From Methanomicrobiales archaeon (lineage in GTDB: Archaea > Halobacteriota > Methanomicrobia > Methanomicrobiales > Methanospirillaceae): a stretch of DNA of 60,919 nt. Of the stretch, positions 2,008 to 42,063 are shown piece after piece. The notes beneath the pieces are model-generated. The model was not told where the DNA came from, made no database searches, and worked only from the letters and a program-made list of their open reading frames with translations. The stretch lies in contig JBAXJR010000010.1 of NCBI GenBank assembly GCA_037137755.1, positions 1 through 60,919 on the forward strand, read 5' to 3'. Made by a program: the position numbers and the translations under genes. Numbering within the stretch: position 1 is the first letter of the stretch; every line of letters begins with the position of its first letter.

Positions 2008-2008
2008 G

Positions 2009-24509: not shown

Positions 24510-25003
24510 GGCATTCGTGGCTGATTTCAATGTAACCCGTAAAGAGTAAAAAAATTCAGGGATCCAACCTGGTGAATCAACCCTGATTGGCAGGTTTTTG
24601 CTAAATTGTAGAGTGTTGGAAAAAGAAGATTTTAGAAAATCTGTTGTTCGCTTAATTGGATTAACTAAGATGTAACTACAATGGTTTTTATTTACACACA
24701 ACTAATACTGTTGATTAAGATTTCCTGAATTGAAAGCGGAGCCAAATTTACGATGAAAGGGATGAGGGATATCGAATCCGTTAATAAGAAAAAAAGTATC
24801 ACCCGTTTTCAAGCGGCCCTTTTTCAGATTTATACCCCGGTCCGGTTATCAATACCCCGGATCCCGGGCATACGGACGATTTTTTTTATAATATACATTA
24901 AAGGACGACTGGTAACCTCAACCATGTCACCAGGAGAAAATCAGCGGGAGTTATCAGATAGATTCTCTGATTTGAAATCCGGGAGTTTTAGAGGTGTTGC
25001 CAC

Positions 25004-26917
25004 ATGGTAAAACGATATCTAAACCTGATCTCTCTTGAACGGGCGATCGATCTTACCCTTACATCATTTGAGAACCCTGACAAGAAAATTTCGATCCCCG
25101 TAATCAATTCTGCCGGGCGGGTTTCAGCTGCTCCTGTATATGCGAAATATTCCGTTCCTGAAGTGAATCTTTCCGCAATGGATGGATTTGCTGTCAGAAG
25201 CAGGGATACCGTGGGCGCAAGCGACCAGACACCGGTAACTATCGAGGATTTCACGCAGGTAAATACCGGTAATATCGTCCCTCCCGAGTTTGATGCGGTC
25301 ATTATGATCGAAGACACCTGGAATAAAGGAGATGGTTTTCAGATCAGGAAATCCGCATCACTCTGGCAGCATATCCGCCCTGCTGGTGAAGATGTCCGGG
25401 AAGGACAACTCGTGCTTCCCGAAGGACACCGGATCCGTCCGTTCGACATCGGTGCCCTGGCCACGTATGGTATTGTCCGTCTCGATGTCAGGGAGGTGAA
25501 TGTCGGGCTGGTACCAACAGGCAGTGAACTGGTTAATCTTGGCATCCGACCCGCACCCGGACAGGTTGTTGAAAGTAATACCATTATGGCAGAGGTTTTT
25601 CTCAGTGAAATGGGCGCGAACTGTACCCGGTATCCCATAGCCCGTGATAATCCAAAGATCATCGAAGAAAGCCTTTGTAAGGCGGTCGATGAAAACGATC
25701 TCGTGCTTATTTCTGCCGGATCATCTGCAGGTACCCGTGACTATACTGCTGAAGTCATCGAATCTGTGGGTGAACTGCTTTTCCATGGTGTTGCAATGAA
25801 ACCTGGAAAACCTGCCATGCTCGGGAAAATTGATGATAAACCCGTGATTGGGTTACCAGGGTATCCACTTGCAGCACAAACGGCACTCAGGGAATTTGCC
25901 GGACCCTTACTTGAATCATGGGGGTTACCCGCACCCCTCTATCACACATTCCGGGTGCAATTATCAGGGAGCCTGGTATCAGACCTCGGGTTTGACGAGT
26001 TCATCCCGGTTTCTGTCGGACATGTTGGGAATAAATTCTTCGCAATTCCCCATTCCCGTGGCTCAGGGATCCAGATGGCAACGGTCAAAGCCAATGGATT
26101 CGTCCATATACCTGCATTCACGGAAGGGTGTGATTCGGAAACCGAGATGGACGCAGTATTGACGACAGATCCGGGTAATATTGAACGGACGATCCTTCTT
26201 TCAGGGGCATACGACCCTGCACTTGATGAACTGGCGCATCTTGTCAGAGATAATGGTATCTTCATGCAGGTCAGGAGTGCAGGTAATATAGGGGCCGTAC
26301 TTTCCCTTCGGCACAATTCCTGCCATGCAGCGCCATTAAGTCTGCCTGATTTTTCGCTATTGCCTAATTGTAGGGAAATTATGCAATTACTACCATTGTC
26401 AGACCTGAGGTTTGTCCATATCGCAACAACCTCTCTCGGTATTGCATCATTGGAGGGGTACAGTTTCGAGGACCTTATTACTACGAGGTTCATTAACAGG
26501 CGGAAAGGGGCCTCGGCCCGGATGATATTTGACACAATTATCCAAGCCAGGGGAATTGATCCGGCACAAATTGATGGGTACGGGCATGAAGTAGAGACGC
26601 ATAAGGCAGTTGCTGAAGCTATTCGAAACGGGTTTGCTGATGCCGGAATATGCAGTTCCGGGGTTGCGGAGGAAAACGGACTTTTATTTGTTCCTCTCGT
26701 GGGCGAACAACTGGAACTGGCAATACGAACTGATCTCATGAAAGAACCAAATATATCGGCACTGGTCTCGACAATTCGGTCAAAATCCTTTAAATTATCC
26801 CTTGCAAATAAAGGAGGATATAATTTGTCACAAACCGGATTAATCCGGTGTCTTTCTGAAGACTTCTCTGTAAAAGAACACCACTCTCCTGAAAGTGCCA
26901 CTGAATCCTTATTTTGA
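25004..26917 (+). CDS. moeA: MoeA fused to a C-terminal periplasmic-binding-protein-like domain
   Basis: SAMDGFAV, NTGN, SAGSSAGTRDY, KPGKP and GLPGYP, then the PBP-like tail FINRRKGASAR...IDGY...THKAVA...ADAG. Confidence 0.92.
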   Translation: MVKRYLNLISLERAIDLTLTSFENPDKKISIPVINSAGRVSAAPVYAKYSVPEVNLSAMDGFAVRSRDTVGASDQTPVTIEDFTQVNTGNIVPPEFDAVIMIEDTWNKGDGFQIRKSASLWQHIRPAGEDVREGQLVLPEGHRIRPFDIGALATYGIVRLDVREVNVGLVPTGSELVNLGIRPAPGQVVESNTIMAEVFLSEMGANCTRYPIARDNPKIIEESLCKAVDENDLVLISAGSSAGTRDYTAEVIESVGELLFHGVAMKPGKPAMLGKIDDKPVIGLPGYPLAAQTALREFAGPLLESWGLPAPLYHTFRVQLSGSLVSDLGFDEFIPVSVGHVGNKFFAIPHSRGSGIQMATVKANGFVHIPAFTEGCDSETEMDAVLTTDPGNIERTILLSGAYDPALDELAHLVRDNGIFMQVRSAGNIGAVLSLRHNSCHAAPLSLPDFSLLPNCREIMQLLPLSDLRFVHIATTSLGIASLEGYSFEDLITTRFINRRKGASARMIFDTIIQARGIDPAQIDGYGHEVETHKAVAEAIRNGFADAGICSSGVAEENGLLFVPLVGEQLELAIRTDLMKEPNISALVSTIRSKSFKLSLANKGGYNLSQTGLIRCLSEDFSVKEHHSPESATESLF

Positions 26918-26973
26918 ATTGGAAATGAAGGATGCCTTTCATATTGCAATACCGGAGATTATTGCAATAAAAT

Positions 26974-27153
26974 TTAATCCGGGTTATCGAAACGCTCGAA
27001 GTAACATTCGCCGGAGGTCAGTTTTTCCCCAGGTTTCAGGTCAATAACGAACCTGTCGGCATGATCCAGGCATACATATACCGCACAGCACCCGTATCCC
27101 TGGTAACCGATGGCGTCTTTTTCACAGTACTCGCATTTCTTTTTTTCGACCAT
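26974..27153 (-). CDS. Small Cys-rich (putative Zn-binding) protein, 59 aa, missing from the ORF track
   Basis: Manual translation: MVEKKKCEYCEKDAIGYQGYGCCAVYVCLDHADRFVIDLKPGEKLTSGECYFERFDNPD*. Confidence 0.7.
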   Translation of the reverse strand: MVEKKKCEYCEKDAIGYQGYGCCAVYVCLDHADRFVIDLKPGEKLTSGECYFERFDNPD

Positions 27154-27229
27154 TGTAGTTCACTTCGGTAGATATTCAGTACTACTCGAAAAAAAAGAGC
27201 TGGTATTAATCCGGGTTTATCCCTGCACA

Positions 27230-27982
27230 TCAATCGGTCTTCGAGAACGATGACCAATGGATATCCTCCTGGATGTTGAACCGGCCGTTGGCCATGAGAT
27301 TCTTACCGATAGAGTTCACGTAACCGAGCTCAGTAGTCGTACCAATCCCGGCCAGGCTCCTCGAACCGAATCTCATCGATCCCATTCCCGAACCTGAACC
27401 AATAGCAGCGAAGGTAAACGTATCCGGGATCTCTAAATCCGCCTGGACAACAGACCCAACAGACCGATAGGTAAGATCATCAGCCATGAACAGCGATCTC
27501 GTGATCACCGTCTCACAATACGGTATTGCGGTGAAGTTCGCTCCGTATGCATCGAGCGATTCCACACCACACGTCACACCGGAAGCAGCAGCACCGGCAG
27601 AGTGGAGCATCATGCTCTCCTCGAAAAGTCCTGGCCCGGAAGACTGTGCCTGGCTTATCGTATCGAAGTGGACAATATCTGAATTGTTCAATATCTGCGA
27701 GCTCTCATACTGCGAAGGACCGGTGAGGATGTACCCGTCCTGGTATCCTCCACTCAGTACTTCCTGCCCGATGGCGAGCGGGGGTGTCTTCGCAAGGTCG
27801 CCGTTTGACACAGTCCACGATATATCAGACGAGCCGACGAGCGACTGGTCAGCGTTTCCCATGAAAGAAACACCAACCGCTGCAGCCTGGGCAGGGGCTG
27901 AGGTTATCGCCAGTCCTGCTACAATTGCTGCGAAAATACAGCCGCCGATGACTAATTTCCTCCTTTTCGTCAGGCGATTCAT
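27230..27982 (-). CDS. Secreted/surface hypothetical protein
   Basis: Basic N-terminus plus hydrophobic signal (KRRKLVIGGCIFAAIVAGLAITSAPAQA), Ser/Gly-rich beta character. ATGA overlap with the upstream gene. Confidence 0.8.
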   Translation of the reverse strand: MNRLTKRRKLVIGGCIFAAIVAGLAITSAPAQAAAVGVSFMGNADQSLVGSSDISWTVSNGDLAKTPPLAIGQEVLSGGYQDGYILTGPSQYESSQILNNSDIVHFDTISQAQSSGPGLFEESMMLHSAGAAASGVTCGVESLDAYGANFTAIPYCETVITRSLFMADDLTYRSVGSVVQADLEIPDTFTFAAIGSGSGMGSMRFGSRSLAGIGTTTELGYVNSIGKNLMANGRFNIQEDIHWSSFSKTD

Positions 27983-28371
27983 TTCGCCTCCGTCTTTCCC
28001 GAGCCCTTAATGAGCCCGTATTCAATGTCATACCAGGCAGACGGAACCGAGATAGTGTATGTGTCAAGTCTCTCAGCTTCAGCCTCGGCTACCTGCCGGA
28101 GCAGGCTTTCCCGTTCAACCGGTGAATGGTCAAACGTGAGCCAACGCTTCGTGCTGTCGGCCATCCTGTACGACCGGCCCTGCACCTCCGGTGGAGCGAC
28201 GCTGACCGAGTCGTCGGTCGCATCGAAGTAGCTCAGTACCTGTCCGGTCTTTTGCTGTGCCGCCTCTGTTTCAGCGATCGCGTTCGTTGCTCTCCGGTGC
28301 TGGATATACGCAAACCCGGCAGCGGCGAATGCAAAAAGCAATTCAATTACATTCGTTAATTCTGGATCCAT
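27979..28371 (-). CDS. Hypothetical protein with N-terminal TM helix
   Basis: VIELLFAFAAAGFAYI anchor. Overlaps both neighbours. Confidence 0.75.
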   Translation of the reverse strand: MDPELTNVIELLFAFAAAGFAYIQHRRATNAIAETEAAQQKTGQVLSYFDATDDSVSVAPPEVQGRSYRMADSTKRWLTFDHSPVERESLLRQVAEAEAERLDTYTISVPSAWYDIEYGLIKGSGKTEAK

Positions 28372-28522
28372 AATTTGCCTCTTTTAATTTCTGTTCCTCA
28401 CGGTGGGCCTCGAATTCTGCACAAAAAACCTCGTATTTTCCGATCTTCTCATAGATCACGAACAGCGAGGGATACAGCGGAAGCACTACCGCAAGAACAA
28501 TGACGAGAAGTTCAACATCCAT
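28343..28522 (-). CDS. Small single-TM protein (59 aa)
   Basis: MDVELLVIVLAVVLPLYPSLFVIYEKIGK... with a GAGGTGG RBS before ATG 28522. Confidence 0.65.
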   Translation of the reverse strand: MDVELLVIVLAVVLPLYPSLFVIYEKIGKYEVFCAEFEAHREEQKLKEANYGSRINECN

Positions 28523-28534
28523 CCTTACCACCTC

Positions 28535-28606
28535 AAAAATGCAGGGGTTTTTTGGATTGGTCCAAAGATAGAGAAGGGTTGGTCCTCTACCACCCCTGCC
28601 ATTTTT
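28535..28606 (-). other. Predicted three-way-junction RNA structure in an intergenic region
   Basis: Outer stem AAAAATG(G)CAGGGG/CCCCTGCATTTTT encloses the hairpins TAGAGGA-ccaaccc-TTCTCTA and TTGGA-ccaa-TCCAA. Confidence 0.45.
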
Positions 28607-28616
28607 CACACCCTGT

Positions 28617-29123
28617 TTATGCAAGGGCGGGCTTCGTGTTCGCCCAGGTGTTCACGCGGGCGACAATCGCATTGTCCTCGTACGAGGAAACGGTGATAGT
28701 CTTCCTGGCAAACGTGACGGTATAGTCTTCGCCGTTCGCATCGTGACAATTCAGCGAGATGGAATACCCTTCGCCTTCAGTGTCCTGGATGGGGTCCCCT
28801 CCGATTGCGGTCGCAAGTGCGGCATTTCCGACGAGTGCGGTTGAAGCTGCGGTATAGCCGGCAACGGTTGATGCCTTTGCAGTTGCCGTACCCATGTTCT
28901 TCAGGGTTGTCGGGTTCTCATAGACCACACGGATGCCGAATGACTGTGTTGCACGGCTTGTCCCGGGGTGAGTCTCACCGGCAACAACGTGGTCCACACA
29001 CTGGAATGCGTTCGTATCGATAACTCCCTGGACAAGGGTGTTCAGTGTCGCTACATCAGCAATTTTGGTCGTAATGGTACGGACCGATCGCTTTACATTT
29101 GCCTTCTGGACAAAATCTGACAT
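28617..29123 (-). CDS. Hypothetical Thr/Ala/Val-rich protein, first gene of the element's left operon
   Basis: 168 aa from ATG 29123 (MSDFVQKANVK...) with a GGAGAG RBS. Confidence 0.8.
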   Translation of the reverse strand: MSDFVQKANVKRSVRTITTKIADVATLNTLVQGVIDTNAFQCVDHVVAGETHPGTSRATQSFGIRVVYENPTTLKNMGTATAKASTVAGYTAASTALVGNAALATAIGGDPIQDTEGEGYSISLNCHDANGEDYTVTFARKTITVSSYEDNAIVARVNTWANTKPALA

Positions 29124-29180
29124 TTCTTTTCTCTCCTGCCCAAAATCTTTGGGCGTATGGCTGTACACGGAGAACTAAGA

Positions 29181-29225
29181 AATATTTTGAGGGCGGGAGG
29201 TAAACCGACAATATTTGAGGGCTGG
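29181..29225. repeat. Imperfect direct repeat in the divergent region before orc1/cdc6
   Basis: AATATTTTGAGGGCGG (29181) and AATATTTGAGGGCTGG (29210). Confidence 0.5.
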
Positions 29226-29352
29226 TTAAAAGAAATACGGCTAATTGATTGTTATTGGAGTGACAAGTACGATGTATCCGGATCGTAACACCGTTCACTT
29301 TCAACACGCCTGGTTCAGCTCTATATCCTCACCGGTGCGATGTTCCTATTCT

Positions 29353-30486
29353 ATGAAGTACTACCATGATACAGGAGCGTCACTGTTCCGTAATCCTGAT
29401 GCCTTCGAAATTGCGTATATCCCCGAGGTGTTCAATTTCCGGGACTCACAGATGAAAGACCTTGCCGATGCACTGCGGCCAGGGCTTACCGGTAAATCCC
29501 CTTTCAACATGGTGCTCCGGGGCCTTCCGGGCACGGGAAAAAGCACCGCAGTCCTCCGGGTCTTTTCGGAACTCGAAGAGACGACATCACGGATCGTTCC
29601 AGTATACGTGAACTGCCAGTCAGAAAACTCTAAGTTCGCGGTATTTGCAAAAATCTACGGGAAACTGCATGGCCATCAGCCGCCACCCTCCGGAAAGCCA
29701 ATCCGGCAGGTCATATACGATATCGGAAAGATCCTCAACGAGAGGAAGTTGGTGCTCCTGGTCTGCTTTGACGATGCCAATTACCTGCTCCCGGGGAAGG
29801 TACTCAACAGTGTCCTGTACATCCTGCTCAGGCTGCACCAGGAGTACCCCGATGCACGGGCAGGAGTCATCCTCCCGATGAGCGATATGGATATGGATCT
29901 CCGTGCAGTCCTCGACCCAAACGTTATTTCCGTCCTGCTGCCCGATACGATTCACTTCCCGCCGTATAACGAAGTGGAAATCAGCACGATCCTGCGGGAC
30001 CGGATCAGGGTCGGTCTCAATCCCGGTGTCATCACCCCCGACATCTTTGACTGCATCATCAGCCATACCATGCGGACCGGGGACATGCGGGTCGGTCTCG
30101 ACCTGGTGAGACGCAGCGTAACGGCAGCCGAACGGGCCGGAATGGACGTGGTCACGAGGGATCATGTCGAGGCCTCATACGATCCTGCAAAAAATGCACC
30201 CCTTGACGCAAGCATCCAGGCGCTTTGCACGGACGAGCGGAAACTCTATGGGCATATTGCGGACATGTCCCTTGGTACCGGTGAAAGCCTCACGAGCGGG
30301 GCCGTGTTTGAGTCGGTGAAACGTTACATGCCGATTAGTTACACCGGGTTCTACGAGAAACTCAAGAAACTGGACGAGATGCGCCTCATTGAAATGACAT
30401 TTCTGAAAGGCAGGGGAACTACCAGGGAGATTGCGCTCCGGTACGATGCGGAAAAGGTGATGAAACTGACGAGGTACGGGGAGTGA
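29353..30486 (+). CDS. cdc6: Orc1/Cdc6-family replication initiator paralogue
   Basis: YIPEVFNFRDSQ, Walker A GLPGTGKS, YVNC, Walker B CFDDAN, FPPY, GDMRVGLD and a C-terminal wH with GRG.TREI. Confidence 0.92.
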   Translation: MKYYHDTGASLFRNPDAFEIAYIPEVFNFRDSQMKDLADALRPGLTGKSPFNMVLRGLPGTGKSTAVLRVFSELEETTSRIVPVYVNCQSENSKFAVFAKIYGKLHGHQPPPSGKPIRQVIYDIGKILNERKLVLLVCFDDANYLLPGKVLNSVLYILLRLHQEYPDARAGVILPMSDMDMDLRAVLDPNVISVLLPDTIHFPPYNEVEISTILRDRIRVGLNPGVITPDIFDCIISHTMRTGDMRVGLDLVRRSVTAAERAGMDVVTRDHVEASYDPAKNAPLDASIQALCTDERKLYGHIADMSLGTGESLTSGAVFESVKRYMPISYTGFYEKLKKLDEMRLIEMTFLKGRGTTREIALRYDAEKVMKLTRYGE

Positions 30487-31005
30487 ATTGAGGTTTATTC
30501 AATTTTTTATTTGTACATTATACAACCCGGAGCGTTGACGGAAAGATTAATTGGACTATCACTGAAGGCTTACCACAGCCAATTACCGTCCTGTCGTAAA
30601 TCAGTCTCAATGTAAGTGAAATTGTAATCCCGGAAAATGGGTTGGTCATACAGGGGGGAGGACCGGACAGTGCGAACATGCCTGGCAGGTTGATTGTCAA
30701 ATTTGGGAAATCGCAGTGAGTGATTAGTATCTCCCCACAGATTTGTGTACCCTGTTCATCTCAACCTGGCATAAAATTCCGTTTAATCAGGGTTTGTGTC
30801 CCAATTTGGTACGGAAAAGAAAGTCGCGTACCATATCTTGGTCATGATGGTACGCAAATCATCAGACCCGGTTGCCATGATATCGAATGGTTAACATGGG
30901 TATATGAGCCAGCGCCGGGTGGGAGGTGACCAGTGTTTTGCAATTGCAAACTTTCAACCGGGTTATCTGTTTTACTTGAAATACATCTTGTCAAAAAAAG
31001 AGAAA

Positions 31006-31461
31006 TCAATTGGTTTGCCGGGTGAGGTGAATGACAAGGGCTTTTGTATCGTTACCTTCCTCGAGATAATTCAGTTCCAGGGAGTTGGGAGTGATCAACT
31101 TTCCGAATGAAAAGCCTCCGATGCTATCGGCTTCATAGAACTCCCCGTTCGTTGTGATAATCCCCGAGAAGTTCTCGTAGTATGTTTTTCCATCGATTCT
31201 TGGATACTCCTTCTTCCCAATAAATACCTGCCCTTTTTGTGTAGTGATGTTGAAGGTTGCTGCAGGATAATGAGTGAACCCGTCATTCGTTGTATACCCA
31301 TCGCCGGTCCCTTGCCATACACCCGTCATAGTGGGGATGTTCACATTCGTTGATACGGTTGGCGATGCGGTCACCTGAGTGATAGTAGGGGCCTGGGTTG
31401 TACATCCACATGCAAGCACAGCAACGATGAATATGATAAGGATAGCTACTATGAATTTCAT
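31006..31461 (-). CDS. Secreted lipoprotein-like hypothetical protein (probable beta-barrel)
   Basis: Signal peptide ending ACGC, Thr/Pro linker, then MTGVWQG beta strands. Confidence 0.75.
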   Translation of the reverse strand: MKFIVAILIIFIVAVLACGCTTQAPTITQVTASPTVSTNVNIPTMTGVWQGTGDGYTTNDGFTHYPAATFNITTQKGQVFIGKKEYPRIDGKTYYENFSGIITTNGEFYEADSIGGFSFGKLITPNSLELNYLEEGNDTKALVIHLTRQTN

Positions 31462-31713
31462 GATTCAAGTATGGTCACGAAAATTTAATAAAATCTAGCT
31501 TGATGTTTCAACCTGGTATACTATTGGTTCTGTATTTCCGGGCATATGTTGAATCCATTTTCCGGATGTGATGGCAGTGTGATCTGTTCCAGGCTGACTG
31601 GAGTGCGCAGTGGGATAATCGTGTCCTATTTCATTGCTGTGCATACGTAGGATATTTTTTAATGGAATCGGGAGGAGTAAAACCGCCCGGATTCCGCTAA
31701 ATTTTGAACTCCA

Positions 31714-31845
31714 TCACTTCCCCACGAACACCGCCGCTTTCCTGTTTCTCCCGTCCAGCACCACCAGCACCGACCACATGGGGACCGTGTAATACACCGC
31801 CCCGATTGAGAGATTCAATGCTTTTCCCGATGCAGAAAGCAGGGC
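31714..31845 (-). pseudogene. 3' fragment of a homologue of the 34320..34775 gene
   Basis: 132 bp with 20 mismatches to 34320..34451. Encodes ALLSASGKALNLSIGAVYYTVPMWSVLVVLDGRNRKAAVFVGK*. No in-frame ATG before the upstream stop. Confidence 0.85.
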
Positions 31846-32237
31846 GGAACCGGCCAGGTGCCTGGAAATAATAGCCTGCCTTCGGAAATAATTTCATATT
31901 TCTATAGCCATGTCATGGCATAGCAAGGATTAAGTATCCCGAAGTCAACAAAAGGATCAGGTAAGCTCATGTCTGTTATGATGTGTACGAGTGACACAGA
32001 TACGATTCAGGTAACAGACACCTTCTTTTTCTTCTTTAGATAGGGGACCCGTGCGATAGCCGGATCCCCTGTAATGTCGTTCCAGAGAGTTTACCGGATG
32101 GTTTTTATCATGTGTAAAATGTTTCTCAACCCACGTCAGGAGGCAGTAAGGCGGAATATCAGCGTTCGCATAGGACACATTCTGCATGCCACCGAAGGTA
32201 TGACCGGAAGCAATCTTTCAGGCCAGAGGATGTCAAA

Positions 32238-33563
32238 ATGAGAGCAAGCACGATTATTCTGTTAGTATTAGCGGTTGGGCTCATCCTTGGCGGTGTTGCC
32301 ATTTCGGGGTGTACCCAGAAGGCCGCAGCATCGCCAACGGAATTAAAGATCGGGGTGGTTGCCTCGCTGACCGGCCCTTCAAGCGCGACCGGGAAAGACA
32401 TGTGGCAGTCGGCACAGATCGCTGCCGACGAAATAAATGCAAACGGAGGTGTCTACGTTACCGGACTCGGGCAGAAAATCCCGGTAAAAGTCATTGTCGG
32501 TGATGATGAATCCACCCGCGAAGGCGGGCAGAAAGCCGTTTCAAAACTCATTTCAGCTGATAATGTCGATGCCCTTGTCGGTGGTTTTTCAAGTGCCGTG
32601 ACAACGGCATCCCAGTCTGTTGTTGCAGAACGCAAGGTGCCGTACGTCATAACCGGTGCATCGAGCCCGACCATCACGAGGAGGACCGATATTGATACGT
32701 CCTACATGTATCACTTCTGCCCGACAACCGATGACTACGGAGGACAGACCACCCGGTTCATCAGCAATTTCATGAGGCCTGCAATCTACCAGAAATTTAG
32801 TCTTGATACTGCCCGGCCACTTCGGCTTGCAATTGTTTACCAGGACAGTCCTTATGGGAAAGGAGTTCTCACGGCGGTTGAAAACACGATAAAGAATGAG
32901 AACCTGCCCGTTAAAATTGTAAGCAACGAATCGTTCAAAATGGGTGAGACTGACTACCGGACATTGCTCACCAATGTCAGGGCGAGTCAGCCCGACGTGA
33001 TTTATTCTGCGGCCTTCCTCAATGAACAGGGCCCCATGATCACCCAGGCCCGGAGAGATGTAGGGCTGAATACCCTGTTCGTCGTGGTAGAGTGCAACGA
33101 CGATCCGGATTATTACAAGAGCCTCAGCAGGTATGGCGAAGGCTCGGTTATAGAAAGCCATTTCAGCCCCTACACGGTGCCGAAAGGTTCTACCTCCGAT
33201 GCGGCTGTTGCTTTCAAGAACAGCTACCAGAACAAATGGGGTGGACTCCCCAGTATGATGGGTGCGACCACGTATGAGGGAGTGAACATTGTCGCTAATG
33301 CAGTCGGGCAGGCAGGATCGCTTGATAAAGCGAAGATCAAGGATGCCCTTGCGGCCACAAATATGCCTGAATCAATAGAGGCCATGAAGGATGGAAAAAT
33401 CACCTTCTCAAAGGATGCCCGTGAGGCAAACTTCAACCTCTACATGGAACAGCTTGCATGGAACGAAACACTGAAGGAACTCCGGCCGACTATTGTTTAT
33501 CCAGCTGACCTGAGCCAGGGCAATTTTGTTCTCCCTGACTGGTACCAACCGGGAACAGCCTGA
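32238..33563 (+). CDS. Branched-chain amino acid (LivJ/K-type) ABC substrate-binding lipoprotein, orphan
   Basis: Signal peptide with SGC, KIGVVASLTG, EINANGG, GGFSS, DSPYG and TDYRTLL. No permease nearby. Confidence 0.9.
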   Translation: MRASTIILLVLAVGLILGGVAISGCTQKAAASPTELKIGVVASLTGPSSATGKDMWQSAQIAADEINANGGVYVTGLGQKIPVKVIVGDDESTREGGQKAVSKLISADNVDALVGGFSSAVTTASQSVVAERKVPYVITGASSPTITRRTDIDTSYMYHFCPTTDDYGGQTTRFISNFMRPAIYQKFSLDTARPLRLAIVYQDSPYGKGVLTAVENTIKNENLPVKIVSNESFKMGETDYRTLLTNVRASQPDVIYSAAFLNEQGPMITQARRDVGLNTLFVVVECNDDPDYYKSLSRYGEGSVIESHFSPYTVPKGSTSDAAVAFKNSYQNKWGGLPSMMGATTYEGVNIVANAVGQAGSLDKAKIKDALAATNMPESIEAMKDGKITFSKDAREANFNLYMEQLAWNETLKELRPTIVYPADLSQGNFVLPDWYQPGTA

Positions 33564-33630
33564 AAAATGGGTGAATGGGGTACCCGGGTCCCCCCAAACT
33601 ATACTTGTTTTTTTCTGCAGCACTTCCAAA

Positions 33631-34248
33631 TCATTCGTCTTCGTCTGATTCATTCCAGGTTTCATATCCTTCCCAAAACAAAAATATCGATATAATAAGG
33701 CCGGCAATTGGGTCTGCCTGCCAGAATCCGAAGAAGTAATTAGCTCCAAGGCCAATCAAAAGTGAAACCGACAAAAATGCACAGGTAATTGTTTCTTTAG
33801 AGTCCGCAATGAGAGCTTTGCTCCCTATCTGGTTACCAACTACATACTTCCTCCAGGCGAGAACCGGCATAATAATAAGTGAAAATACTGCAATAACCAT
33901 CCCGATTAAGGATGGCTGGGAGATCTCCTGGGTCACAAGTTTGCTAATGGATACAAACACAACGTAAATTCCCAGTACCAAAAATGTTATCGCAACTAAT
34001 TTTTTAGCCTTATTTTCCACAATCTCTTCTTCTTCCTCGGAAATGTGGCCATGATTACGAAGTCGCCAGATCAGGACAGACCCGGAAAGAGACTCAACAA
34101 CACTATCGAGACCGAAACTGATAAGCGAAATGCTTGAAGCCGCGTTGCCAAAAAATATCGATAAAATTGCCTCGATAATGTTATAACCGACTGTAAAATA
34201 TTCCAATAACAGGGCTGTCTGGAATAATGATTCGGATTTTTCTTTCAT
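33631..34248 (-). CDS. Cation-efflux (CDF-related, TM-domain-only) membrane protein
   Basis: YNIIEA, SISLISFGLDSVVE, ALIADS and WQADP. About 6 TM helices. AT-rich gene. Confidence 0.8.
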   Translation of the reverse strand: MKEKSESLFQTALLLEYFTVGYNIIEAILSIFFGNAASSISLISFGLDSVVESLSGSVLIWRLRNHGHISEEEEEIVENKAKKLVAITFLVLGIYVVFVSISKLVTQEISQPSLIGMVIAVFSLIIMPVLAWRKYVVGNQIGSKALIADSKETITCAFLSVSLLIGLGANYFFGFWQADPIAGLIISIFLFWEGYETWNESDEDE

Positions 34249-34319
34249 TGGATAGTAAAAGAATCAGTTTGAAGATTATATAACTGAATTGCCAGGTCAG
34301 GATTTTATTAATATTCATT

Positions 34320-34775
34320 TCATTTCCCCACAAACACCGCCGCCTTTCTATTCCTACCATCCAGCACCGCCAGCACCGATCGTAATGGAACCGTGTAATA
34401 CACAGCCCCGATTGAAATATTCAATGCCTTTCCCGATGCAGAAAGCCGGGCCTTACCGACGACCTTTCGTGGACTACCGAGCAACCTGATTTCCCGCGTA
34501 TCCCCATCAAGCACCGCATCAATATCCTCATTCAGCAGGAGAAATACCCGGCTGTCAAGGTCAGAGTAGATTGCAATCCCAGCCGGGCACATGATCAGCC
34601 TCCCTGCTTTTTCAAATGATGACCGGCTGGAGGGGTAGGTAACGAACTGAGTCGGCGGTTCTTCTGTAGCCTGCTCTTTTGCAACCGGAGGAATTTTAAC
34701 GGGTTCCTGCACACTTCTCCACCCGGACAGGACTTCCTTCAACCGATCAAAAAATTTCCGGAGGGTGGCAATCAT
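34320..34775 (-). CDS. Hypothetical protein of the element's replication operon
   Basis: ATG 34775 with a GAGGGTGA RBS. C-terminal tandem beta-beta-beta-alpha-like units. Confidence 0.7.
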   Translation of the reverse strand: MIATLRKFFDRLKEVLSGWRSVQEPVKIPPVAKEQATEEPPTQFVTYPSSRSSFEKAGRLIMCPAGIAIYSDLDSRVFLLLNEDIDAVLDGDTREIRLLGSPRKVVGKARLSASGKALNISIGAVYYTVPLRSVLAVLDGRNRKAAVFVGK

Positions 34776-34830
34776 GCGATCACCCTCACGAATTCCGGGC
34801 AGTAATCCAGACCCTTCAGCCACAATAACA

Positions 34831-37800
34831 TCATTGGCACATCCCCTCCTGCTCACTACCCCCTGATTGCCGGGAGATCTCCCGGTTGTAGCAGTAATCA
34901 CAGAGTTTCACCTTCGTGGCCTCGTCATACCAGGCAGCACTTCCAATGTCACAGACCGAACACCGGCCGAGGTCCCGGGTCAACCTTTTCATCGACCTCA
35001 CGGGGAGCACTCCCGGTAATGGTAACCCCGAAGCCTGTGCTTTCAACACGGCATCACCGTGACAGGTCCTGCACAATCTCCGGGCAGGGAGAGCGGGATT
35101 GCTGGCCCGTTCGGGGGTAAGCTTCTCGATAAACCACGAATCACCCCGCTTCCCACAACAGGTACAGGGTACCCTGTCGGGATAGTCTGCCTTCCGGTAG
35201 TCACCCGGATGTATCCCGGCAGGCGGAATCCGGTCATGTCCCTGTACATCGGGCGAAATCTTCCGCGTGGATATTCCAGGTTGTACATCAACGTTTTCAC
35301 AGATTGGGGGCAGGTTACAGGACTCCCTGTTTTGTCGTACGGAATTCTGTACTTCACAATGAGTAGGTACGTGTAGGTCACACGTGCCGTCGGGAGTCTC
35401 CGCGAGATCTGATTTTTCAGAATAGAGCTGATCATTAGTACAGCTATGGGTAGGAATGTCATCAATTCCTGAATCACGGGCATCCCGTGGGAATTGATCC
35501 ACGCGGAAACTTTCAGCTATTGTGCAGCTTGTTTCCGTAGTCTGCCCGTCTTTTCCGTACGGGTCATCCCGGAGCCAGACACTCCCGCCGCTGCACCAAA
35601 TCCTGAACAACACGTCATCAAAGGTATAGGCATTCGTCCTCCTTCGCATCGAAATCCCGGTATCATTCTCATCGCATACCACCGTCCTGTCGGTATAGGC
35701 AATCGCCGGGCACTTCTCGAGCAGGCCGGAATAGGCATACCCCCGGGTGATGTAGCCATGCATCGTCCGGTAGACCACCCCGTTTGAGAGGCCCGTCGCC
35801 TTCTGCAGCATCGAGGTCGTGAACTCAGTCCAGCTGTGCCGGGCGATGATGGTAAGGAGGTCTGATTCTTTCTTCGTCAGCTTCGTCGTCTGGCCACCCG
35901 CTGACCCGTTGAGCAGCTCGAACAGCCGGGCCGCAGCGTTAAAATCTTCAAGGGTTGCAGTAATGCAGCGTACATCTCCCACCTGCGTTACTTCGCGCTG
36001 CATGAACCGGAGGAGGGCATGGGCCTTGATCAGGTCGAGCAGCATCCCTGAATTCCGCCTGTTGCTCCTCGACTGGAACTCGATCTGTTCCGAAAACGGC
36101 ACCCGGACGTACAACCGCTGGCGTCCCAGCACCTCCCACATCGCCCGGCAGACCGCGAGTTCCGGCCGTTCAACCTCGTTGGCAACGGGAAAATCCGAGT
36201 CCTTCGCCAGGATACAGGCCAGAACGCGGTCGTCCTGGTCGGCCGTGTCATCGATCCAGCAGGTCAGCATCCGGTTGAACACCTGGTCGTCCCCGCTGCC
36301 TTCGACCTTCGCCACCCACCAGGTACACCGCTCCGGGATCGTGCAGACCTGGGGCTTTCTGTCCTTATTCACCGTCCGGTACTCGAACGGCTCTTTGAAC
36401 GAGGTGGTCACTCCCTTGAGGACCTCCTGCATTTCATCGGAAAGCGTGGTATCGTCGAGCACGATCACCATCCCCGGGACCAGGTTTTCGAGGTAGAACA
36501 GCGCCTTGTTGCTCATCCTGCCCGAGAGCCTGAACCTCCCGGGGACCTGCAGGAGCATTTTTGAAAATGCGTGGCTCTTCCCCTTCCCGCTCTCCCCCGT
36601 GACCGAGACATGAAGCCCGACCGTGTTGATCACCGACCGGCTCGCAAGCGACATGACCAGGCACGCTGCAACCGTCTCGTCCCCGACATGGTCGAGTGCA
36701 AACGTATTCAGCATCGCCTGGAGCGGATCGCCATACTGAAGTACTGCCATTGCTTCCTGCATCCCGGGAAGGTCATGAAGTCCCGGGACTGGTGAAGGGG
36801 GGAGAGGTGAGGGATGGTCAGGAGTGGCCTTTTTCCTCGCAACCTTCGGTTCAGCCATTTCCCGGAGTTCCGACCACCGCTGCTCCCCTCCACCGCAGGA
36901 CGCATGATGACACCCGGCATGGATGGCCCCGTTCCCGAACTGGATGGCAAATGCACCATCTTGGTGGTCGCATGAAAACGGGCACTGGTGAAAGGTGAAC
37001 AACGTCCCACCCTGGTAGGGCTTCCCGGTGGACACCTCAAAATTATGCTCATGTAACCAGGCCCCAAGGTCGGGCGGCCTACTGTATCCTCGTACACCGC
37101 TGGTCCCGCTACGGGAATTTGCAGTGGCTGCCGGCAGGCATTCCGCCAGTTTCATGAGCAATGTATCCCCGGCTTCATCTGCCTCAACCGGGTGAGAACG
37201 GACCAGGGCCCGGCGGTGCGGACGGTCGGATGTATTGTCACCCTTCCTGCACATCGTACCGTAGAGTTTCCAGATCCTTGACGGGTTGTGGACTGTCGTA
37301 TCGATGGTGCTCTCCGGACCGTCGAACATCGCCGCGAGCACCTCCAGGCACTTCTTCACCAGCTCCCGGGACGCCTCGTCATTCGGCAGGTCGATACGGT
37401 ACAACAGGTGGGCACCGTTCCCGCTGTCGGCAACAACCGGGGCCGGCCACCCGAGGTCACTGAGATAAACCGCGATCCGTTCCGCTTTCGCCATCGCGGC
37501 ATTATGCTCCGACTCTGTTGAAGATACCCCGGAAGGCCGTACGGGGTCGACATCAACCGGCAGCCAGCGACGACGGATGATATCGGCATCCGCCGTGGTC
37601 GCATCTTTTTTCGAAAGACGCATCTTGATCCTGTTTGCACGCCGTGAGAGGAGGGCCGGGTTCACCTCGTTCAGGGTCACATAAATCCCCTGGACCCCGG
37701 GCAGGGTATCCAGCGGACTAACCGCGTTTGCGAGCGCTGCCGGGTCATTGAAGTACCCCGAGGCCACCCCGTCGTCGGTGATAGCCCGGACTTCTACGAG

Positions 37801-37881
37801 CTGCCCGGGTTTGAAAAGCACCGAGAGGGCATCCGTCATCGCCTTCATTGCGGGAATACCTGGCTGACAGGGCTCATGCAT
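34831..37881 (-). CDS. Multidomain replication protein: AEP/RepB'-like primase, Zn finger, P-loop NTPase, wHTH and Cys-rich tail
   Basis: PVDVD, DSGNGAHL, IDTTVHNPSRIWKLYGT; CPFSCDH...CHHASC; GESGKGKS and IVLDD; C-terminal CTCC/CRTC/CSVC/CDYC. ATG 37881 overlaps the hjc-like stop. Confidence 0.85.
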   Translation of the reverse strand: MHEPCQPGIPAMKAMTDALSVLFKPGQLVEVRAITDDGVASGYFNDPAALANAVSPLDTLPGVQGIYVTLNEVNPALLSRRANRIKMRLSKKDATTADADIIRRRWLPVDVDPVRPSGVSSTESEHNAAMAKAERIAVYLSDLGWPAPVVADSGNGAHLLYRIDLPNDEASRELVKKCLEVLAAMFDGPESTIDTTVHNPSRIWKLYGTMCRKGDNTSDRPHRRALVRSHPVEADEAGDTLLMKLAECLPAATANSRSGTSGVRGYSRPPDLGAWLHEHNFEVSTGKPYQGGTLFTFHQCPFSCDHQDGAFAIQFGNGAIHAGCHHASCGGGEQRWSELREMAEPKVARKKATPDHPSPLPPSPVPGLHDLPGMQEAMAVLQYGDPLQAMLNTFALDHVGDETVAACLVMSLASRSVINTVGLHVSVTGESGKGKSHAFSKMLLQVPGRFRLSGRMSNKALFYLENLVPGMVIVLDDTTLSDEMQEVLKGVTTSFKEPFEYRTVNKDRKPQVCTIPERCTWWVAKVEGSGDDQVFNRMLTCWIDDTADQDDRVLACILAKDSDFPVANEVERPELAVCRAMWEVLGRQRLYVRVPFSEQIEFQSRSNRRNSGMLLDLIKAHALLRFMQREVTQVGDVRCITATLEDFNAAARLFELLNGSAGGQTTKLTKKESDLLTIIARHSWTEFTTSMLQKATGLSNGVVYRTMHGYITRGYAYSGLLEKCPAIAYTDRTVVCDENDTGISMRRRTNAYTFDDVLFRIWCSGGSVWLRDDPYGKDGQTTETSCTIAESFRVDQFPRDARDSGIDDIPTHSCTNDQLYSEKSDLAETPDGTCDLHVPTHCEVQNSVRQNRESCNLPPICENVDVQPGISTRKISPDVQGHDRIPPAGIHPGDYRKADYPDRVPCTCCGKRGDSWFIEKLTPERASNPALPARRLCRTCHGDAVLKAQASGLPLPGVLPVRSMKRLTRDLGRCSVCDIGSAAWYDEATKVKLCDYCYNREISRQSGGSEQEGMCQ

Positions 37882-38221
37882 GGCAACCGGCTCCCATAAT
37901 ACCCCCTGGTAATACATCGTACATGTGCCAGCCTTCGTGGTCGACATAGATCCAGAGCTGAACCTTGGTTCCAGGTGGAGCCGGAGTCCTCTGGAGGAGC
38001 CGGATTACACCCCCGAAATGAATCGTTACAGTCCGTGCCGACTCGATCTTCGACCGCCACCGGCGGGTCTTCACGAGGAGCACATGGTCAGGGGACCAGG
38101 CTACAAGGTCAACCGGTGTCTGGGAACCTGCGGAACGGACGACAAAATAGCCCTGCCTGAGCAGCAGGTTCCTCGCGATAAAATCTACTTCATGGGGCCT
38201 CGTATGCCCGGGCTCTGTCAT
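37874..38221 (-). CDS. Hjc-like (PD-(D/E)XK) Holliday junction resolvase homologue
   Basis: LLRQGYFVVRSAGSQTPVDLVAW...LLVKTR. Confidence 0.75.
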   Translation of the reverse strand: MTEPGHTRPHEVDFIARNLLLRQGYFVVRSAGSQTPVDLVAWSPDHVLLVKTRRWRSKIESARTVTIHFGGVIRLLQRTPAPPGTKVQLWIYVDHEGWHMYDVLPGGIMGAGCHA

Positions 38222-38538
38222 CGGTCCACCACCCCGGAGGACTCAGGTATCCGTGCCAGTTCTGCGACCGGCCGTAACCCCGTTGATACGTCAACGAATA
38301 CCCCTCGTGGGAGCAGCCAGCATGAAGGACCACAATGGAATTCTATTGCTTTCCCGGCCCGGTGAGGGGTGATGAAGGAGCCGGCATCAATAATGCCGCC
38401 CGGTAACCGGAGCGGGATGGTACTGCCCCAGAAGAGCAGGCTCCGGACCTCCTTCGGGGAGAGCGTGAAGGTGTTACCGCCAATTACTACGATAAGGCAC
38501 CCTTCGGTTGCGGTATGGACTGTGGCCGTGCAGGTCAT
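38218..38538 (-). CDS. Hypothetical protein, apparent paralogue of the 34320 gene
   Basis: ATGA overlap with the hjc-like gene. GGTGA RBS before ATG 38538 (alternative start 38559). AGKAIEF...LLP...V..G aligns with SGKALNI...TVP...VLDG. Confidence 0.65.
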   Translation of the reverse strand: MTCTATVHTATEGCLIVVIGGNTFTLSPKEVRSLLFWGSTIPLRLPGGIIDAGSFITPHRAGKAIEFHCGPSCWLLPRGVFVDVSTGLRPVAELARIPESSGVVDR

Positions 38539-38660
38539 GGAGATCACCCGGACCGGCATAAATAGGATGATAACCTGCCAGTTACCAGACTAGTAGTGCT
38601 CCCCTGTTTCATTGCCGTGGTTGGTTTATGTGCAGCGGGGGCACTCATTTTTTGTATCAA

Positions 38661-38774
38661 TTACCTGTCCTCCTGAGTTGCCGGGAATCGGATTTCCGTT
38701 ATAATTTTACTGTCAGACCTGCCCTGGTTTGCAAGTGCATTACGCACAGACCTCTGGATTGTTGTTTGTTGCAT
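38661..38774 (-). CDS. Possible 37-aa leader ORF of the element's right operon
   Basis: MQQTTIQRSVRNALANQGRSDSKIITEIRFPATQEDR* with leader CAGGAGAAAGAAATG. Confidence 0.35.
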   Translation of the reverse strand: MQQTTIQRSVRNALANQGRSDSKIITEIRFPATQEDR

Positions 38775-38948
38775 TTCTTTCTCCTGGCGGAACCGGGATG
38801 ACCCGTCTGCCGCCACAACATGGATGGTTTATTACCAATCTAAAGGTTGAGCAGAGCGATTGAAAGTAAACGAACAATCAGCAATAGTAATATCATGGAT
38901 TGAATATGAGCTGTTAGTTAAGTACATTAAGGGAATACAGGGGTTATT

Positions 38949-40091
38949 TTGGTGGAAGAAGAGGTTCACGGCGGATTAACGTTTAACCTGTCCGAGCTTG
39001 CCGGGGCATTGGGAGATTTCGGGACGATTCTCCCCCTGATGTTTGCTGTTGCCCTTGTATGCCATCTCAACCTTGGGATTATTCTTCTCTTCTTCGGCAT
39101 CTGGTTCGTTGTTACCGGGCTCTACTACCGCCTGCCAATCCCCATCGAGCCGATGAAGGTTATCGCGGTTGTAGCGATTTCAAGCGTTCTCGCCGGGCCG
39201 GAAATTGCAGCCGCAGGTATCCTCCTCGGCCTCCTCTTTTTCTTCCTCGGTTTTGGCAAGTGGATGTATTATATTGGAAAATATATCCCGAACGCGGTAA
39301 TCAGGGGTATCCAGGTCGGACTGGCCCTGTTACTCCTTAAATCAGCCGGGGTCTTTATGTTCCAGGCCCCGGGATTTTTTGCCTTCGGGATTGCCGTTAT
39401 CGTACTCGTATTCCTGCTTTCTTACCTTGGAAAGATCCCGGACCTCTCTGCACTAATCCTTCTTGCGCTGGCGGTTATCATTGGGATCTTCATACACGGA
39501 TTTCCTGATATGTACATCATCAATATCCCGGGACTGGTAATCCCATCGTTCGCCGACTATATTGCATCGATCCCCGAACTTGTCCTTCCCCAGGCTGTGA
39601 TCACTATTACGAATGCGATCCTGGCCACTTCTCTTCTTACCAGGGACATGTTTTCCCGCGAAATACCCCCGGAAAGACTTTCAAAGACCATCGGCGTCAT
39701 GAATATTATTTCCGCCCCGTTCGGTGGATTTCCCATGTGTCACGGGGCAGGGGGCCTTGCGGCCCAGTACCGGTTCGGGGCAAGAACCGGCGGTTCGAAT
39801 ATTTTTGCAGGGGTGATCCTCCTCGTCATTGCAGTACTTTTCGCCGGCCCAGGGATACAGGAACTCATCTCTCCGGGAATCTTCGGTGCACTCCTCGTCT
39901 TTGTCGCTATCGAAATGGGAAAGCACGGGTTAAAAACCGACTCCCTGCCAGTCACTATCGTTACCGGCGTCCTGGCATTACTTTCAGTAGTAGGGGGATT
40001 CATTGCCGGGATGGTCCTCGCGTACCTGATGAAATGGAACACGGAGAGGAAACAAAAGGGGAAAGATGTCACACCACCCCTGACCCCATAA
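38949..40091 (+). CDS. MOT1-family molybdate (sulfate-like) transporter
   Basis: ELAGALGDFGT, PIPIEPMK and FGGFPMCHGAGGLAAQYRFGAR are MOT1 signatures. Confidence 0.9.
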   Translation: MVEEEVHGGLTFNLSELAGALGDFGTILPLMFAVALVCHLNLGIILLFFGIWFVVTGLYYRLPIPIEPMKVIAVVAISSVLAGPEIAAAGILLGLLFFFLGFGKWMYYIGKYIPNAVIRGIQVGLALLLLKSAGVFMFQAPGFFAFGIAVIVLVFLLSYLGKIPDLSALILLALAVIIGIFIHGFPDMYIINIPGLVIPSFADYIASIPELVLPQAVITITNAILATSLLTRDMFSREIPPERLSKTIGVMNIISAPFGGFPMCHGAGGLAAQYRFGARTGGSNIFAGVILLVIAVLFAGPGIQELISPGIFGALLVFVAIEMGKHGLKTDSLPVTIVTGVLALLSVVGGFIAGMVLAYLMKWNTERKQKGKDVTPPLTP

Positions 40092-40160
40092 CAAAAATTG
40101 TTCGCTTAACATTTTTATCTGGTTAAGTAGTAGTATAGAGGAAGAACCGGACGTGACAAG

Positions 40161-41036: not shown

Positions 41037-41188
41037 TCACCGGAATGTCCTTTGCATCCAGGTCAGGAGACCGGGAATGTTCTTTCAAAACGGAATTCCA
41101 AAACTAAAACCCCGACTTCCAGATGGCAAAAAAACCGGAAATCATCTCGTTGGAGGATTGGAATCTACATAACACGTGATTTTTCTGA

Positions 41189-41692: not shown

Positions 41693-42063
41693 TAAAAAGG
41701 ACGCAATTGTTCTGTTAAGTCTTGTGGAGACCCGGCCAGGGATCCAGGGTTTCATCTTCCGGTATACCTGGCCTGAACCTTCCAAAACGTTATCAAAACT
41801 TAACAATTTCTTATTAAAACGATATTCCGGAAAAATCCATTGCGGATTTCTCCGGGAACCGAAAATACGAGCTGGAACGGGGATTAAGAAGATCACTGGC
41901 GGCCCTGGCTGTAGTGCCTGCCGGACCATGCTGACTGGATTACCCTGTGCCGCAAAAACCCCCCCGATGCGGCATAGTACTGTTACGACGGTTATGATAA
42001 AAATGTTTCTTATTGAATAATGTTAACTAATATTAATTAATATGAGGAGAGGACCAGGATGGA

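Follow-up and report, generated by a model that had tools for sequence, protein, structure and literature searches.

The 60,919 nucleotides analysed here (the window, positions 1 to 60,919 of contig JBAXJR010000010.1 of the Methanomicrobiales archaeon assembly GCA_037137755.1) contain, at about 26946..38851, an inserted element of some 11.9 kb whose ends are uncertain by about 20 bp. This segment is very probably an integrated mobile element of a family characterised by a replicase within the AEP (archaeo-eukaryotic primase) superfamily and an Hjc-type partner protein, similar to the arCOG07809 and arCOG09441 proteins. The element family was sketched in 2014 (PMC4158269) and is uncharacterised since, and the window copy is a new member. 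A preliminary description of this DNA had spoken of a poorly described family: in the literature, the arCOG identifiers were found only in the 2014 paper and no later study of the family was found, but the family is not undescribed, as its primase/nuclease module fits the one presented in the accessible text of PMC4158269. The favoured reading is that of a plasmid-like or satellite-like element composed of exchangeable modules, the replication side of which is well supported; a true virus is possible, with no positive evidence in its favour.

The element is inserted into the spacer between moeA-PBP and MOT1 in a molybdenum/tungsten (Mo/W) gene island of this freshwater methanogen; the left flank carries moeA and moeA-PBP, and the right flank carries genes assigned by Pfam to MFS_MOT1, a methyltransferase and TrmO. 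The window genome (G000, in which the window contig is C10) was compared with 61 related genomes (the other G labels), and in three genomes of the same genus the spacer is empty, with only 133 bp (G006:C417), 116 bp (G003:C77) and 69 bp (G002:C340) between the two genes. Host homology to these empty-site genomes ends at 26918-26929 and restarts at 38899-38953 (by eye, at about 38868). Other copies of the element first match the window at 26946-26951, and the right limit of element homology is 38851, where G003:C162 runs on into an array of clustered regularly interspaced short palindromic repeats (CRISPR). The gap in host homology and the limits shared with other copies thus place the element at about 26946-38851. 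Contig G010:C21 is an occupied orthologous site with 17.7 kb between the flanks; the flanks of G000 and G010 are 89-92% identical and the element parts 84-95%, so that the insertion is older than the split of these two genomes and the element was already present in their common ancestor. The GC content rises to 0.56-0.60 over 35-38 kb, the replicase region, against about 0.46-0.52 in the flanks, and both junctions are spanned in integrated form by contigs of run X1 (a possible source) and run X5 (another study). The mobile-element insertion in the Mo/W island proposed in the preliminary description is thus borne out by the empty sites next to the occupied G010 site and by base composition. The core genes of the window copy look intact; there is no sign of activity.

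The main gene of the element (34831..37947, minus strand) encodes the replicase, P0001, of 1038 aa counted from the first ATG and not the 1016 aa given earlier; its database representative has 1028 aa and its precomputed family label is PF27228. Based on conserved motifs and a fold search, P0001 is predicted to be an AEP primase-polymerase fused to a zinc (Zn) motif, a P-loop NTPase, a helix-turn-helix (HTH) domain and C-terminal Cys-rich Zn motifs. Pfam, NCBIfam and PDB sequence searches with the whole protein and with profiles of its N-terminal and NTPase domains return nothing useful; the weak signals are phrog_19 (E 3e-4) and, in one homologue, LigD_Prim-Pol (E 1e-3). In an alignment of the N-terminal domain with 24 relatives, D132, the S175-G-N-G-x-H180 motif and D216 are invariant, D134 of the DxD motif is conserved in at least 90% of the sequences and a Cys/His cluster is also conserved. 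The AlphaFold2 (AF2) model has a predicted local distance difference test score (pLDDT) of 90.6, and its top Foldseek match is the AEP domain of cyanophage S-2L PrimPol (6zp9_A; E 1.2e-4, probability 1.00, template modelling (TM) score 0.63 on the target), followed by primase RepB' (3h20; E 1.6e-4, probability 1.00) and then by Prim-PolC, LigD polymerase domains, CAPP, human PrimPol and archaeal and eukaryotic PriS; AEP enzymes make up nearly all of the top 49 matches listed. Both the catalytic motifs of the AEP superfamily (DxD, sGxGxH and a third acidic residue) and its fold are therefore found in P0001, in line with the earlier designation of this gene as an AEP primase-NTPase. The N-terminal domain has 81 relatives in IMG/VR, at 31-46% identity and with the same invariant residues; among eight of them that were scanned, six continue into a helicase module of the D5_N/DUF5906, VapE or DUF3987 type and two are without a Pfam match. 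In the middle of P0001, the G/G/K of Walker A and a Walker-B-like aspartate are invariant, and members of the family give weak Pfam matches to AAA_22 (4/7), AAA_16 (4/7), RNA_helicase (2/7) and an HTH; the C-terminus is Cys-rich. The NTPase part also shares 24% identity (E 3e-9) with a hypothetical open reading frame (ORF; NC_014409.1, 548-1624) of a 4.4-kb plasmid of Methanothermobacter marburgensis. This match links the replicase family, as a distant relative, to a plasmid that exists free in a different order of methanogens.

Directly upstream of the replicase gene, and overlapping it, lies the gene of the Hjc homologue (37874..38221, minus strand), a protein of 115 aa with the PD-(D/E)xK fold; the same neighbour is found upstream of the replicase in G010, in G036 and in three G027 copies, all of which were aligned, and on C58 and C101. 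Its Pfam match to Hjc (E 0.006) is below the cut-off, and a profile of six such proteins matches Pyrococcus furiosus Hjc (1gef) at E 1.3e-5 and Sulfolobus Hjc at about 1e-3. In comparison with archaeal Hjc, the N-terminal half is homologous, and most members retain both the first acidic residue and the D within the 'VDLVA' strand. The catalytic E-x-K is replaced in all six aligned members by K-x-R, R-x-K, R-x-L or M-x-R, and D38 is Asn in one of the six. The catalytic set E...D...E-x-K is thus incomplete, and the protein is therefore named a homologue with a degenerate active site and not a resolvase; of the 'Hjc-like nuclease' announced earlier, the homology stands and the catalytic motif does not.

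Two small proteins frame this pair of genes. R113 (38218..38559, minus strand, 113 aa) is encoded upstream of the Hjc homologue; R193 (34320..34775, minus strand, 151 aa from an internal ATG in an ORF that extends to 34901) is encoded after the primase, as are its homologues on C59 and C54 and in G010 and G036. Direct comparison of R113 and R193 by BLASTP gives E 0.37, and alignment of the two family profiles by hhalign gives a probability of 82.9% (E 9e-6, 82 columns); two homologues from other genomes match both proteins. It is thus reasonable to consider R113 and R193 as probable paralogues, at the profile level only, and the two small paralogues of the preliminary description are retained with this restriction. 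The right operon starts with a 37-aa ORF (38661..38774, minus strand), and a similar N-terminus is present in G003:C162.

The left arm is a second minus-strand operon, led by L183 (28617..29123), a protein of 168 aa. L183 is followed by L93, a single-pass membrane protein (ORF 28343-28624, likely 28343..28522 and about 59 aa from an internal ATG), by L130 (27979..28371), a protein of 130 aa with an N-terminal hydrophobic anchor, and by L250 (27230..27982), a protein of 250 aa with a signal-peptide-like N-terminus that belongs to no known family; the hydrophobic segments and signal-like N-termini were read by eye from the sequences. The L183 operon thus combines a 168-aa protein, two small membrane-anchored proteins and one signal-peptide protein. 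A 59-aa Cys-rich, Zn-ribbon-like ORF (26974..27153, minus strand), absent from the earlier gene list, comes last in this operon; it lies within a 300-bp segment (26946-27250) that recurs at 85-89% identity in five further locations within the genus and is missing from the G010 copy. Adjoining operon genes overlap by 4-8 nt, and the ORF positions and the two minus-strand operons with overlapping genes otherwise agree with those first described.

Of all genes in the element, L183 is the best conserved. Its family has a uniform length of 167-168 aa and contains no Pfam domain; invariant residues include R15, C42, C126, E132, R140 and Y148, and a profile search of 1.84 billion representatives yields 596 representative clusters. 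Its AF2 model (pLDDT 90.1) has no structural match at E <= 0.001, the best TM-scores being 0.36 in PDB and 0.37 in BFVD. The four proteins L183, L93, L130 and L250 have no Pfam or PHROG match, L183, L130 and L250 have no NCBIfam match, and the ESM Atlas gives no usable match for L183 or L250. The 131 homologues of L250 are all annotated as 'hypothetical', carry Methanomicrobiales names only and contain no Pfam domain, and L250 has no phage match. Copies of L130 (76-89% identity) are present on C34, C6 and C54, which also carry copies of L93. L183 has no relatives in IMG/VR or PLSDB; of the viral and plasmid databases that the preliminary description had named for the core proteins, relatives are thus found for the replicase, through its N-terminal domain in IMG/VR and its NTPase part on the plasmid, and none for L183. 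For the 'membrane/structural module' proposed at the same time, 'structural' is unproven, and the left arm is also present at places that have no primase. In G001:C5 the L250 homologue is directly followed by a type IV pilin of archaeal type (Pilin_N, E 7e-17; locus L140, 12843-13316), and in G036 the gene ahead of the element encodes a DUF7289 protein; these neighbours may be due to chance or hint at a link with surface structures.

Between the two arms, the plus-strand gene at 29245..30486 encodes an Orc1/Cdc6 initiator, an extra copy with the AAA+ module (Pfam AAA_22), the Cdc6 lid (Pfam Cdc6_lid) and a full-length match to the curated ORC1-type model NF001624 (NCBIfam; 410.8 bits against a cut-off of 354). 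The window genome contains six matches to this protein, against two in most relatives, and extra copies of archaeal Cdc6/Orc1 genes often derive from integrated elements, according to the accessible text of PMC3914693. Comparison of coordinates places an extra Orc1 between the replicase and L183, or next to L183 and divergent from it, at no fewer than 11 further loci (G010:C21, G001:C5, G052:C43, G022:C23, G024:C19, G048, G058:C17, G043, G053, G046:C9 and G002:C517), and the Orc1 of the G010 copy is 95% identical to that of the window. Because it recurs between the arms or beside L183, the extra Orc1 is considered part of the element and not cargo, contrary to the preliminary description, which had placed it with the unrelated cargo genes. 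The spacer of about 120 bp between the divergent L183 and orc1 genes (29124..29244) contains two 12-nt direct repeats (at 29186 and 29214) and may be a control region, serving as origin or operator.

The usual architecture of the family, on one strand, is a small protein, the Hjc homologue, the replicase, a small paralogue, a variable cargo zone and the L183 operon. In the window, the two arms also have a leader in common: the motif CAGGAGA(N0-4)AAGAAATG occurs at exactly two sites, both on the minus strand (29121-29138 and 38772-38786), in front of the lead ORFs of the two operons, and none of 100 shuffles gave two matches, which upholds the near-identical leaders first noticed in the sequence. 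Across the compared genomes, the replicase is found in 41 of 61, with up to 18 matches per genome, and L183 in 56 of 61. By comparison of the coordinates of these matches, the replicase is followed at 25 loci in six families by L183 on the same contig and strand, L183 lying 1-23 kb downstream and the arms of some loci being just 1-3 kb apart. These loci are G000:C10; G010:C21, C139 and C182; G003:C305; G036:C9, C10 and C13; G029:C26 and C50; G020:C50; G022:C23; three in G027; G025, G053, G043, G042, G052 and G048; three in G058; and G026:C30. The arms thus do co-occur elsewhere, and across the order, which speaks for the synteny that the preliminary description had left to related genomes. A compact copy, G036:C10, holds the Hjc homologue, the replicase, the R193 homologue, L183, L93, L130 and L250 within 7.3 kb. 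Within the window genome, additional copies of the replicase are located on C58, C59, C54 (interrupted by one TGA) and C101 (partial), together with primase-less relatives on C30 and C45. In the protein database, at least 2725 replicase relatives reach E <= 0.001 among 8000 candidates scored; among the 120 listed, all those with a source name are 'hypothetical', and the organisms are Methanoregula, Methanolinea, Methanoregulaceae or Methanomicrobiales. Relatives are also carried by the cultured Methanoregula formicica, Methanolinea mesophila and Methanosphaerula palustris. These matches show the family to be multi-copy and order-wide.

Several results weigh against the interpretation of the whole segment as one mobile element of this family. 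The window module fits the arCOG07809 and arCOG09441 elements by domain order and partner description, and its membership in arCOG07809 is presumptive. Inspection of the junctions by eye and by repeat search found no attachment (att) site, target duplication or defined ends; between genomes the spacer has diverged too far, with TTGAAT and GCAATA as the only short words in common. The missing E-x-K makes a nuclease role of the Hjc homologue in integration doubtful, and particle formation by the L183-operon proteins, which are without PHROG, BFVD or IMG/VR relatives, is unproven. Moreover, the arms are separable: L183 occurs in more genomes than the replicase, six loci (G016, G044, G054, G026:C41, G032 and G040) have L183 upstream of the primase and divergent from it, and the arm order is reversed on C54 of the window genome. 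G017 contains six L183 matches, located in small islands of unknown ORFs amid ordinary genes, and no replicase relative, and G001 contains a cluster of orc, L183, an ORF the size of L130 and a homologue of L250 (46% identity), also with no replicase. Within the window genome, the L183 copies are 87-92% identical (tblastn; 89-94% in a second search) and the replicases 48-58% (51-63%); L183 being so much less diverged, the arms are thus without one shared history. The wider occurrence of L183, the G017 and G001 cases, the greater divergence of the replicases within the window genome, the reversed order on C54 and the right-arm-only contigs C58 and C59 would fit a composite origin, in which a primase-type plasmid-like replicon and a separate Orc1/L183 island, be it another element or an often-duplicated envelope cluster, share insertion hot spots. 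This is nevertheless a rather improbable explanation: both arms are jointly missing at all three empty sites, the 25 co-linear loci keep order and strand in six families and sometimes at close range, both lead ORFs of the window have a leader motif that is not expected by chance, and short contigs of metagenome-assembled genomes (MAGs) break inside L183, which makes 'arm-only' contigs unreliable.

The element could also, though this is unlikely, be a provirus. The L183 operon would then supply the virions of a new family of methanogen viruses, enveloped or pleomorphic and probably non-lytic, with the primase arm as replication module; as a detail of that same unlikely proposal, L183 could be a nucleoprotein or matrix protein and the small membrane and secreted proteins components of the envelope. 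The layout of the operon, an abundant-looking soluble protein with two membrane proteins and one signal-peptide protein downstream of a viral-type replicase at 25 loci, agrees with it, as do the conservation of L183 above all other element genes and the frequency of primase N-domain relatives in IMG/VR contigs, and a (satellite) virus was proposed for the primase elements in the accessible text of PMC4158269. The same text reports no apparent capsid proteins, and here no hallmark virion protein of the known archaeal virus families was found, in PHROGs for the four left-arm proteins and in BFVD and IMG/VR for L183 alone; no packaging ATPase and no known capsid or spike family was found either. 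Neither the lack of BFVD or PDB structural matches and of IMG/VR or PLSDB relatives for L183, nor the lack of a phage match for L250, favours a virion, and L183 islands exist without any replication gene. Finally, the shared site in G000 and G010, with a divergence similar to that of the flanks, could suggest that the segment is an ordinary, vertically inherited and non-mobile part of the Mo/W island; this is extremely improbable in view of the empty sites in three congeners, the multi-copy paralogues at unrelated sites, the GC anomaly and the viral/plasmid-type replicase.

In the plasmid-like or satellite-like reading favoured here, the element would replicate as an episome, its own primase-NTPase making primers and unwinding or loading at an element origin and its Orc1/Cdc6 recruiting the minichromosome maintenance (MCM) helicase of the host. 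Since the element is without a recombinase, entry into the chromosome and exit from it would proceed with help in trans, from a host Xer or from an integrase that a related element encodes, or through recombination of one copy with another. Recombination at the 3' end of R193 would bring in new cargo and leave repeats of about 140 nt. The least supported step concerns the L183 operon, which might act at the cell envelope, either in transfer (by a vesicle or pleomorphic particle) or in exclusion. A bolder version, which we consider distinctly unlikely, would make the L183 operon the transfer apparatus of a new integrase-less type of archaeal element, perhaps forming a pleomorphic particle or a DNA-carrying vesicle, that moves and captures cargo by recombination at the R193 3' end with neither integrase nor att site; this version draws on the matchless fold of L183, the restriction of the operon to Methanomicrobiales, its multi-copy state and its higher conservation than that of the replicase.

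In agreement with the preliminary description, which had reported no integrase, tRNA target or att repeats, the window contains no tRNA gene and no terminal direct or inverted repeats that would pair the element ends. Phage_integrase (PF00589) and Resolvase (PF00239) matches are absent from C10, C54, C58, C59, C34 and C6, although split integrases of the Sulfolobus spindle-shaped virus (SSV) type could escape these models, and no integrase lies near compact copies such as G036:C10; the window genome as a whole yields 11 matches to Phage_integrase and one to Resolvase. On C20 (locus L139), a tyrosine integrase of 456 aa (6401-7771) with a C-terminal zinc ribbon is separated by about 1.4 kb from a truncated L183 (4538-5035), and on C45 (10289-10816) the distance between another integrase and the primase-less relative of the replicase is about 5 kb. 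These two cases fit the remark on integrase-bearing islands in the accessible text of the 2014 paper. Contigs of four runs, inspected over 24000-42000, include no joint that skips the element or joins its ends, but contigs drop rare variants, so that this absence does not imply that such forms are missing. The summed contig depth is 4-10 times higher over 27005-29408 and 36020-36620, which shows only that many near-identical copies are present in the community and is not a measure of copy number.

The 29 CRISPR spacers of the window genome, compared with the genome and with the compared loci, give one match (33/34) and none to the element. The matching spacer (C54, at 99) matches C43:10284-10317, within a decarboxylase-like ORF of 404 aa that has an L183 pseudogene (10864-11256, with one TAG) as its neighbour. 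Two copies of the element lie next to CRISPR arrays: on C54 (1-1297, with C42:19070-19769) the last repeat is about 70 bp from an R193 homologue (1366-1800), and on G003:C162 (locus L046, 94-928) an array, recognised by its repeat-derived ORFs, ends about 220 bp from the right end of the element (1153). The ends that abut the arrays differ, and their position may merely reflect a clustering of arrays and elements.

Among known systems, the closest are the elements described by Makarova et al. (2014; PMC4158269), the accessible text of which presents arCOG07809 as a protein with primase, helicase/ATPase, HTH and Zn-finger parts (for example Mpal_2033 of Methanosphaerula palustris), associated with a nuclease of the Holliday junction resolvase (HJR) family, arCOG09441, in small integrated elements, several of which have integrases and mapped sites. 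Both the domain order (primase, NTPase/helicase, HTH, Zn) and the adjacent HJR-family PD-(D/E)xK gene are found in the window, which also shares with these elements, as far as that text describes them, the host order, the small size, the integrated state and the lack of recognisable capsid genes. By contrast, the window copy has no integrase, and neither an Orc1/Cdc6 partner nor a conserved operon of a 168-aa protein is mentioned in the accessible text of the 2014 paper. The plasmids of the pRN1 type in Sulfolobus (ORF904, a prim-pol with a superfamily 3 (SF3) helicase and a winged HTH) and of the pTN2 type in Thermococcus likewise rely on a single large replicase, which has an AEP primase-polymerase at its N-terminus, a P-loop NTPase in its centre and a domain that binds DNA, and are small cryptic replicons able to integrate. 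However, the window replicase has no detectable sequence similarity to theirs (no Pfam Prim-Pol or PDB sequence match), would fall in a different arCOG according to the accessible text of PMC4158269, and is accompanied by features beyond those of pRN1 and pTN2, namely the extra Zn motif, the C-terminal Cys-rich tail, the Orc1 gene and the operon of membrane and secreted proteins. With the phage and plasmid primase-helicases of the D5_N/DUF5906, VapE and DUF3987 types, the element has in common the AEP N-terminal domain and the role of a mobile-element primase; its NTPase is related to an ORF of the M. marburgensis plasmid and is not D5- or VapE-like. Pleolipoviridae and spindle-shaped (fusello-like) proviruses are also small and integrated, with plasmid-type replication genes and few membrane proteins, and a non-lytic way of life is imaginable here too, but PHROGs, Pfam and BFVD reveal no relative of a spike, a VP3-type protein, a major capsid protein or an SSV-type integrase.

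The cargo zone between R193 and L183 differs between the window genome and G010. In the window it comprises a 151-aa lipoprotein-like ORF (31006..31461, minus strand), with paralogues on C52, C13 and C1 and no family match, a periplasmic binding protein gene (32238..33563, plus strand; Peripla_BP_6, Pfam E 1.9e-53) and a cation-efflux family ORF of 205 aa (33631..34248, minus strand; Pfam Cation_efflux, E 6.3e-13). The one long repeat of the element, of 139 nt and 83% identity (31714-31852 against 34320-34458), corresponds to the last 45 or so codons and the stop codon of R193: its copy D1b is the 3' end of R193 itself, and D1a (31714..31852, minus strand), identified by repeat search and tblastn, is the end fragment of an R193-type gene with 81.6% amino-acid identity to the R193 end. 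The cassette enclosed by the two R193 ends holds the Peripla_BP_6 gene and a cation diffusion facilitator (CDF) fragment. The G010 copy has three R193 ends and also a methylase fragment fused to an R193 end, and its cassettes contain Peripla_BP_6, which is common to both copies, and then bestrophin-like genes and a P-type ATPase; the Cation_efflux ORF is missing there, the P-type ATPase cassette being in its place. In all five R193-end copies the stop codon is the exact starting point, and the similarity fades at roughly one common position further in, which suggests that the cassettes arise by repeated recombination at the R193 3' end. The cargo zone of the G010 copy (locus L044, G010:C21, 6191-7734) further includes an AbiEi/AbiEii toxin-antitoxin pair of the abortive-infection type, which the window copy is without. 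An 854-aa ORF of G010 that had been a candidate for a primase-less replicase is the P-type ATPase and was ruled out.

In freshwater and wetlands, Methanomicrobiales rank among the major producers of methane, and to our knowledge almost nothing is known of their mobile elements. The present family is abundant, brings along a primase of its own as well as an additional Orc1/Cdc6, and mobilises genes for metal transport and defence (AbiE in the G010 copy). Its anatomy is now defined as a replicase arm, an Orc1, the L183 operon and, with repeated gene ends as its borders, a cargo zone, and together with the cultured carriers this makes it possible to test integration without an integrase, the roles of the L183 proteins and the origin of extra methanogen Orc1 genes from such elements.

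The spacer that holds the element is also a place of rearrangement of the Mo island among congeners: in G005:C2, fdhA/fdhB-like genes (locus L047, 4321-7451) occupy the moeA-PBP/MOT1 spacer, and in the window they are found at 757-4078, 20 kb leftward. A second case of presence and absence, G043 against G038, offers no clean empty site and was set aside; at the position of the G043 element, G038:C1 has an insertion-sequence ORF of the TnpB/OrfB-like type (locus L134, 2210-3376; 388 aa, C-terminal Zn-ribbon motif), another sign that such spacers are insertion hot spots. Some of the breaks in the assemblies of these MAGs are caused by the element family. Several of the contigs C54, C6, C61, C106 and C101 of the window genome end inside L183 or the replicase, and 'arm-only' contigs therefore need careful reading. 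One contig each of runs X1, X5 and X8 contains a tail-to-tail join (28632/34357) of the L183 3' end to the R193 3' end on opposite strands, with 44 letters on the shorter side; these contigs probably represent another copy of the family.

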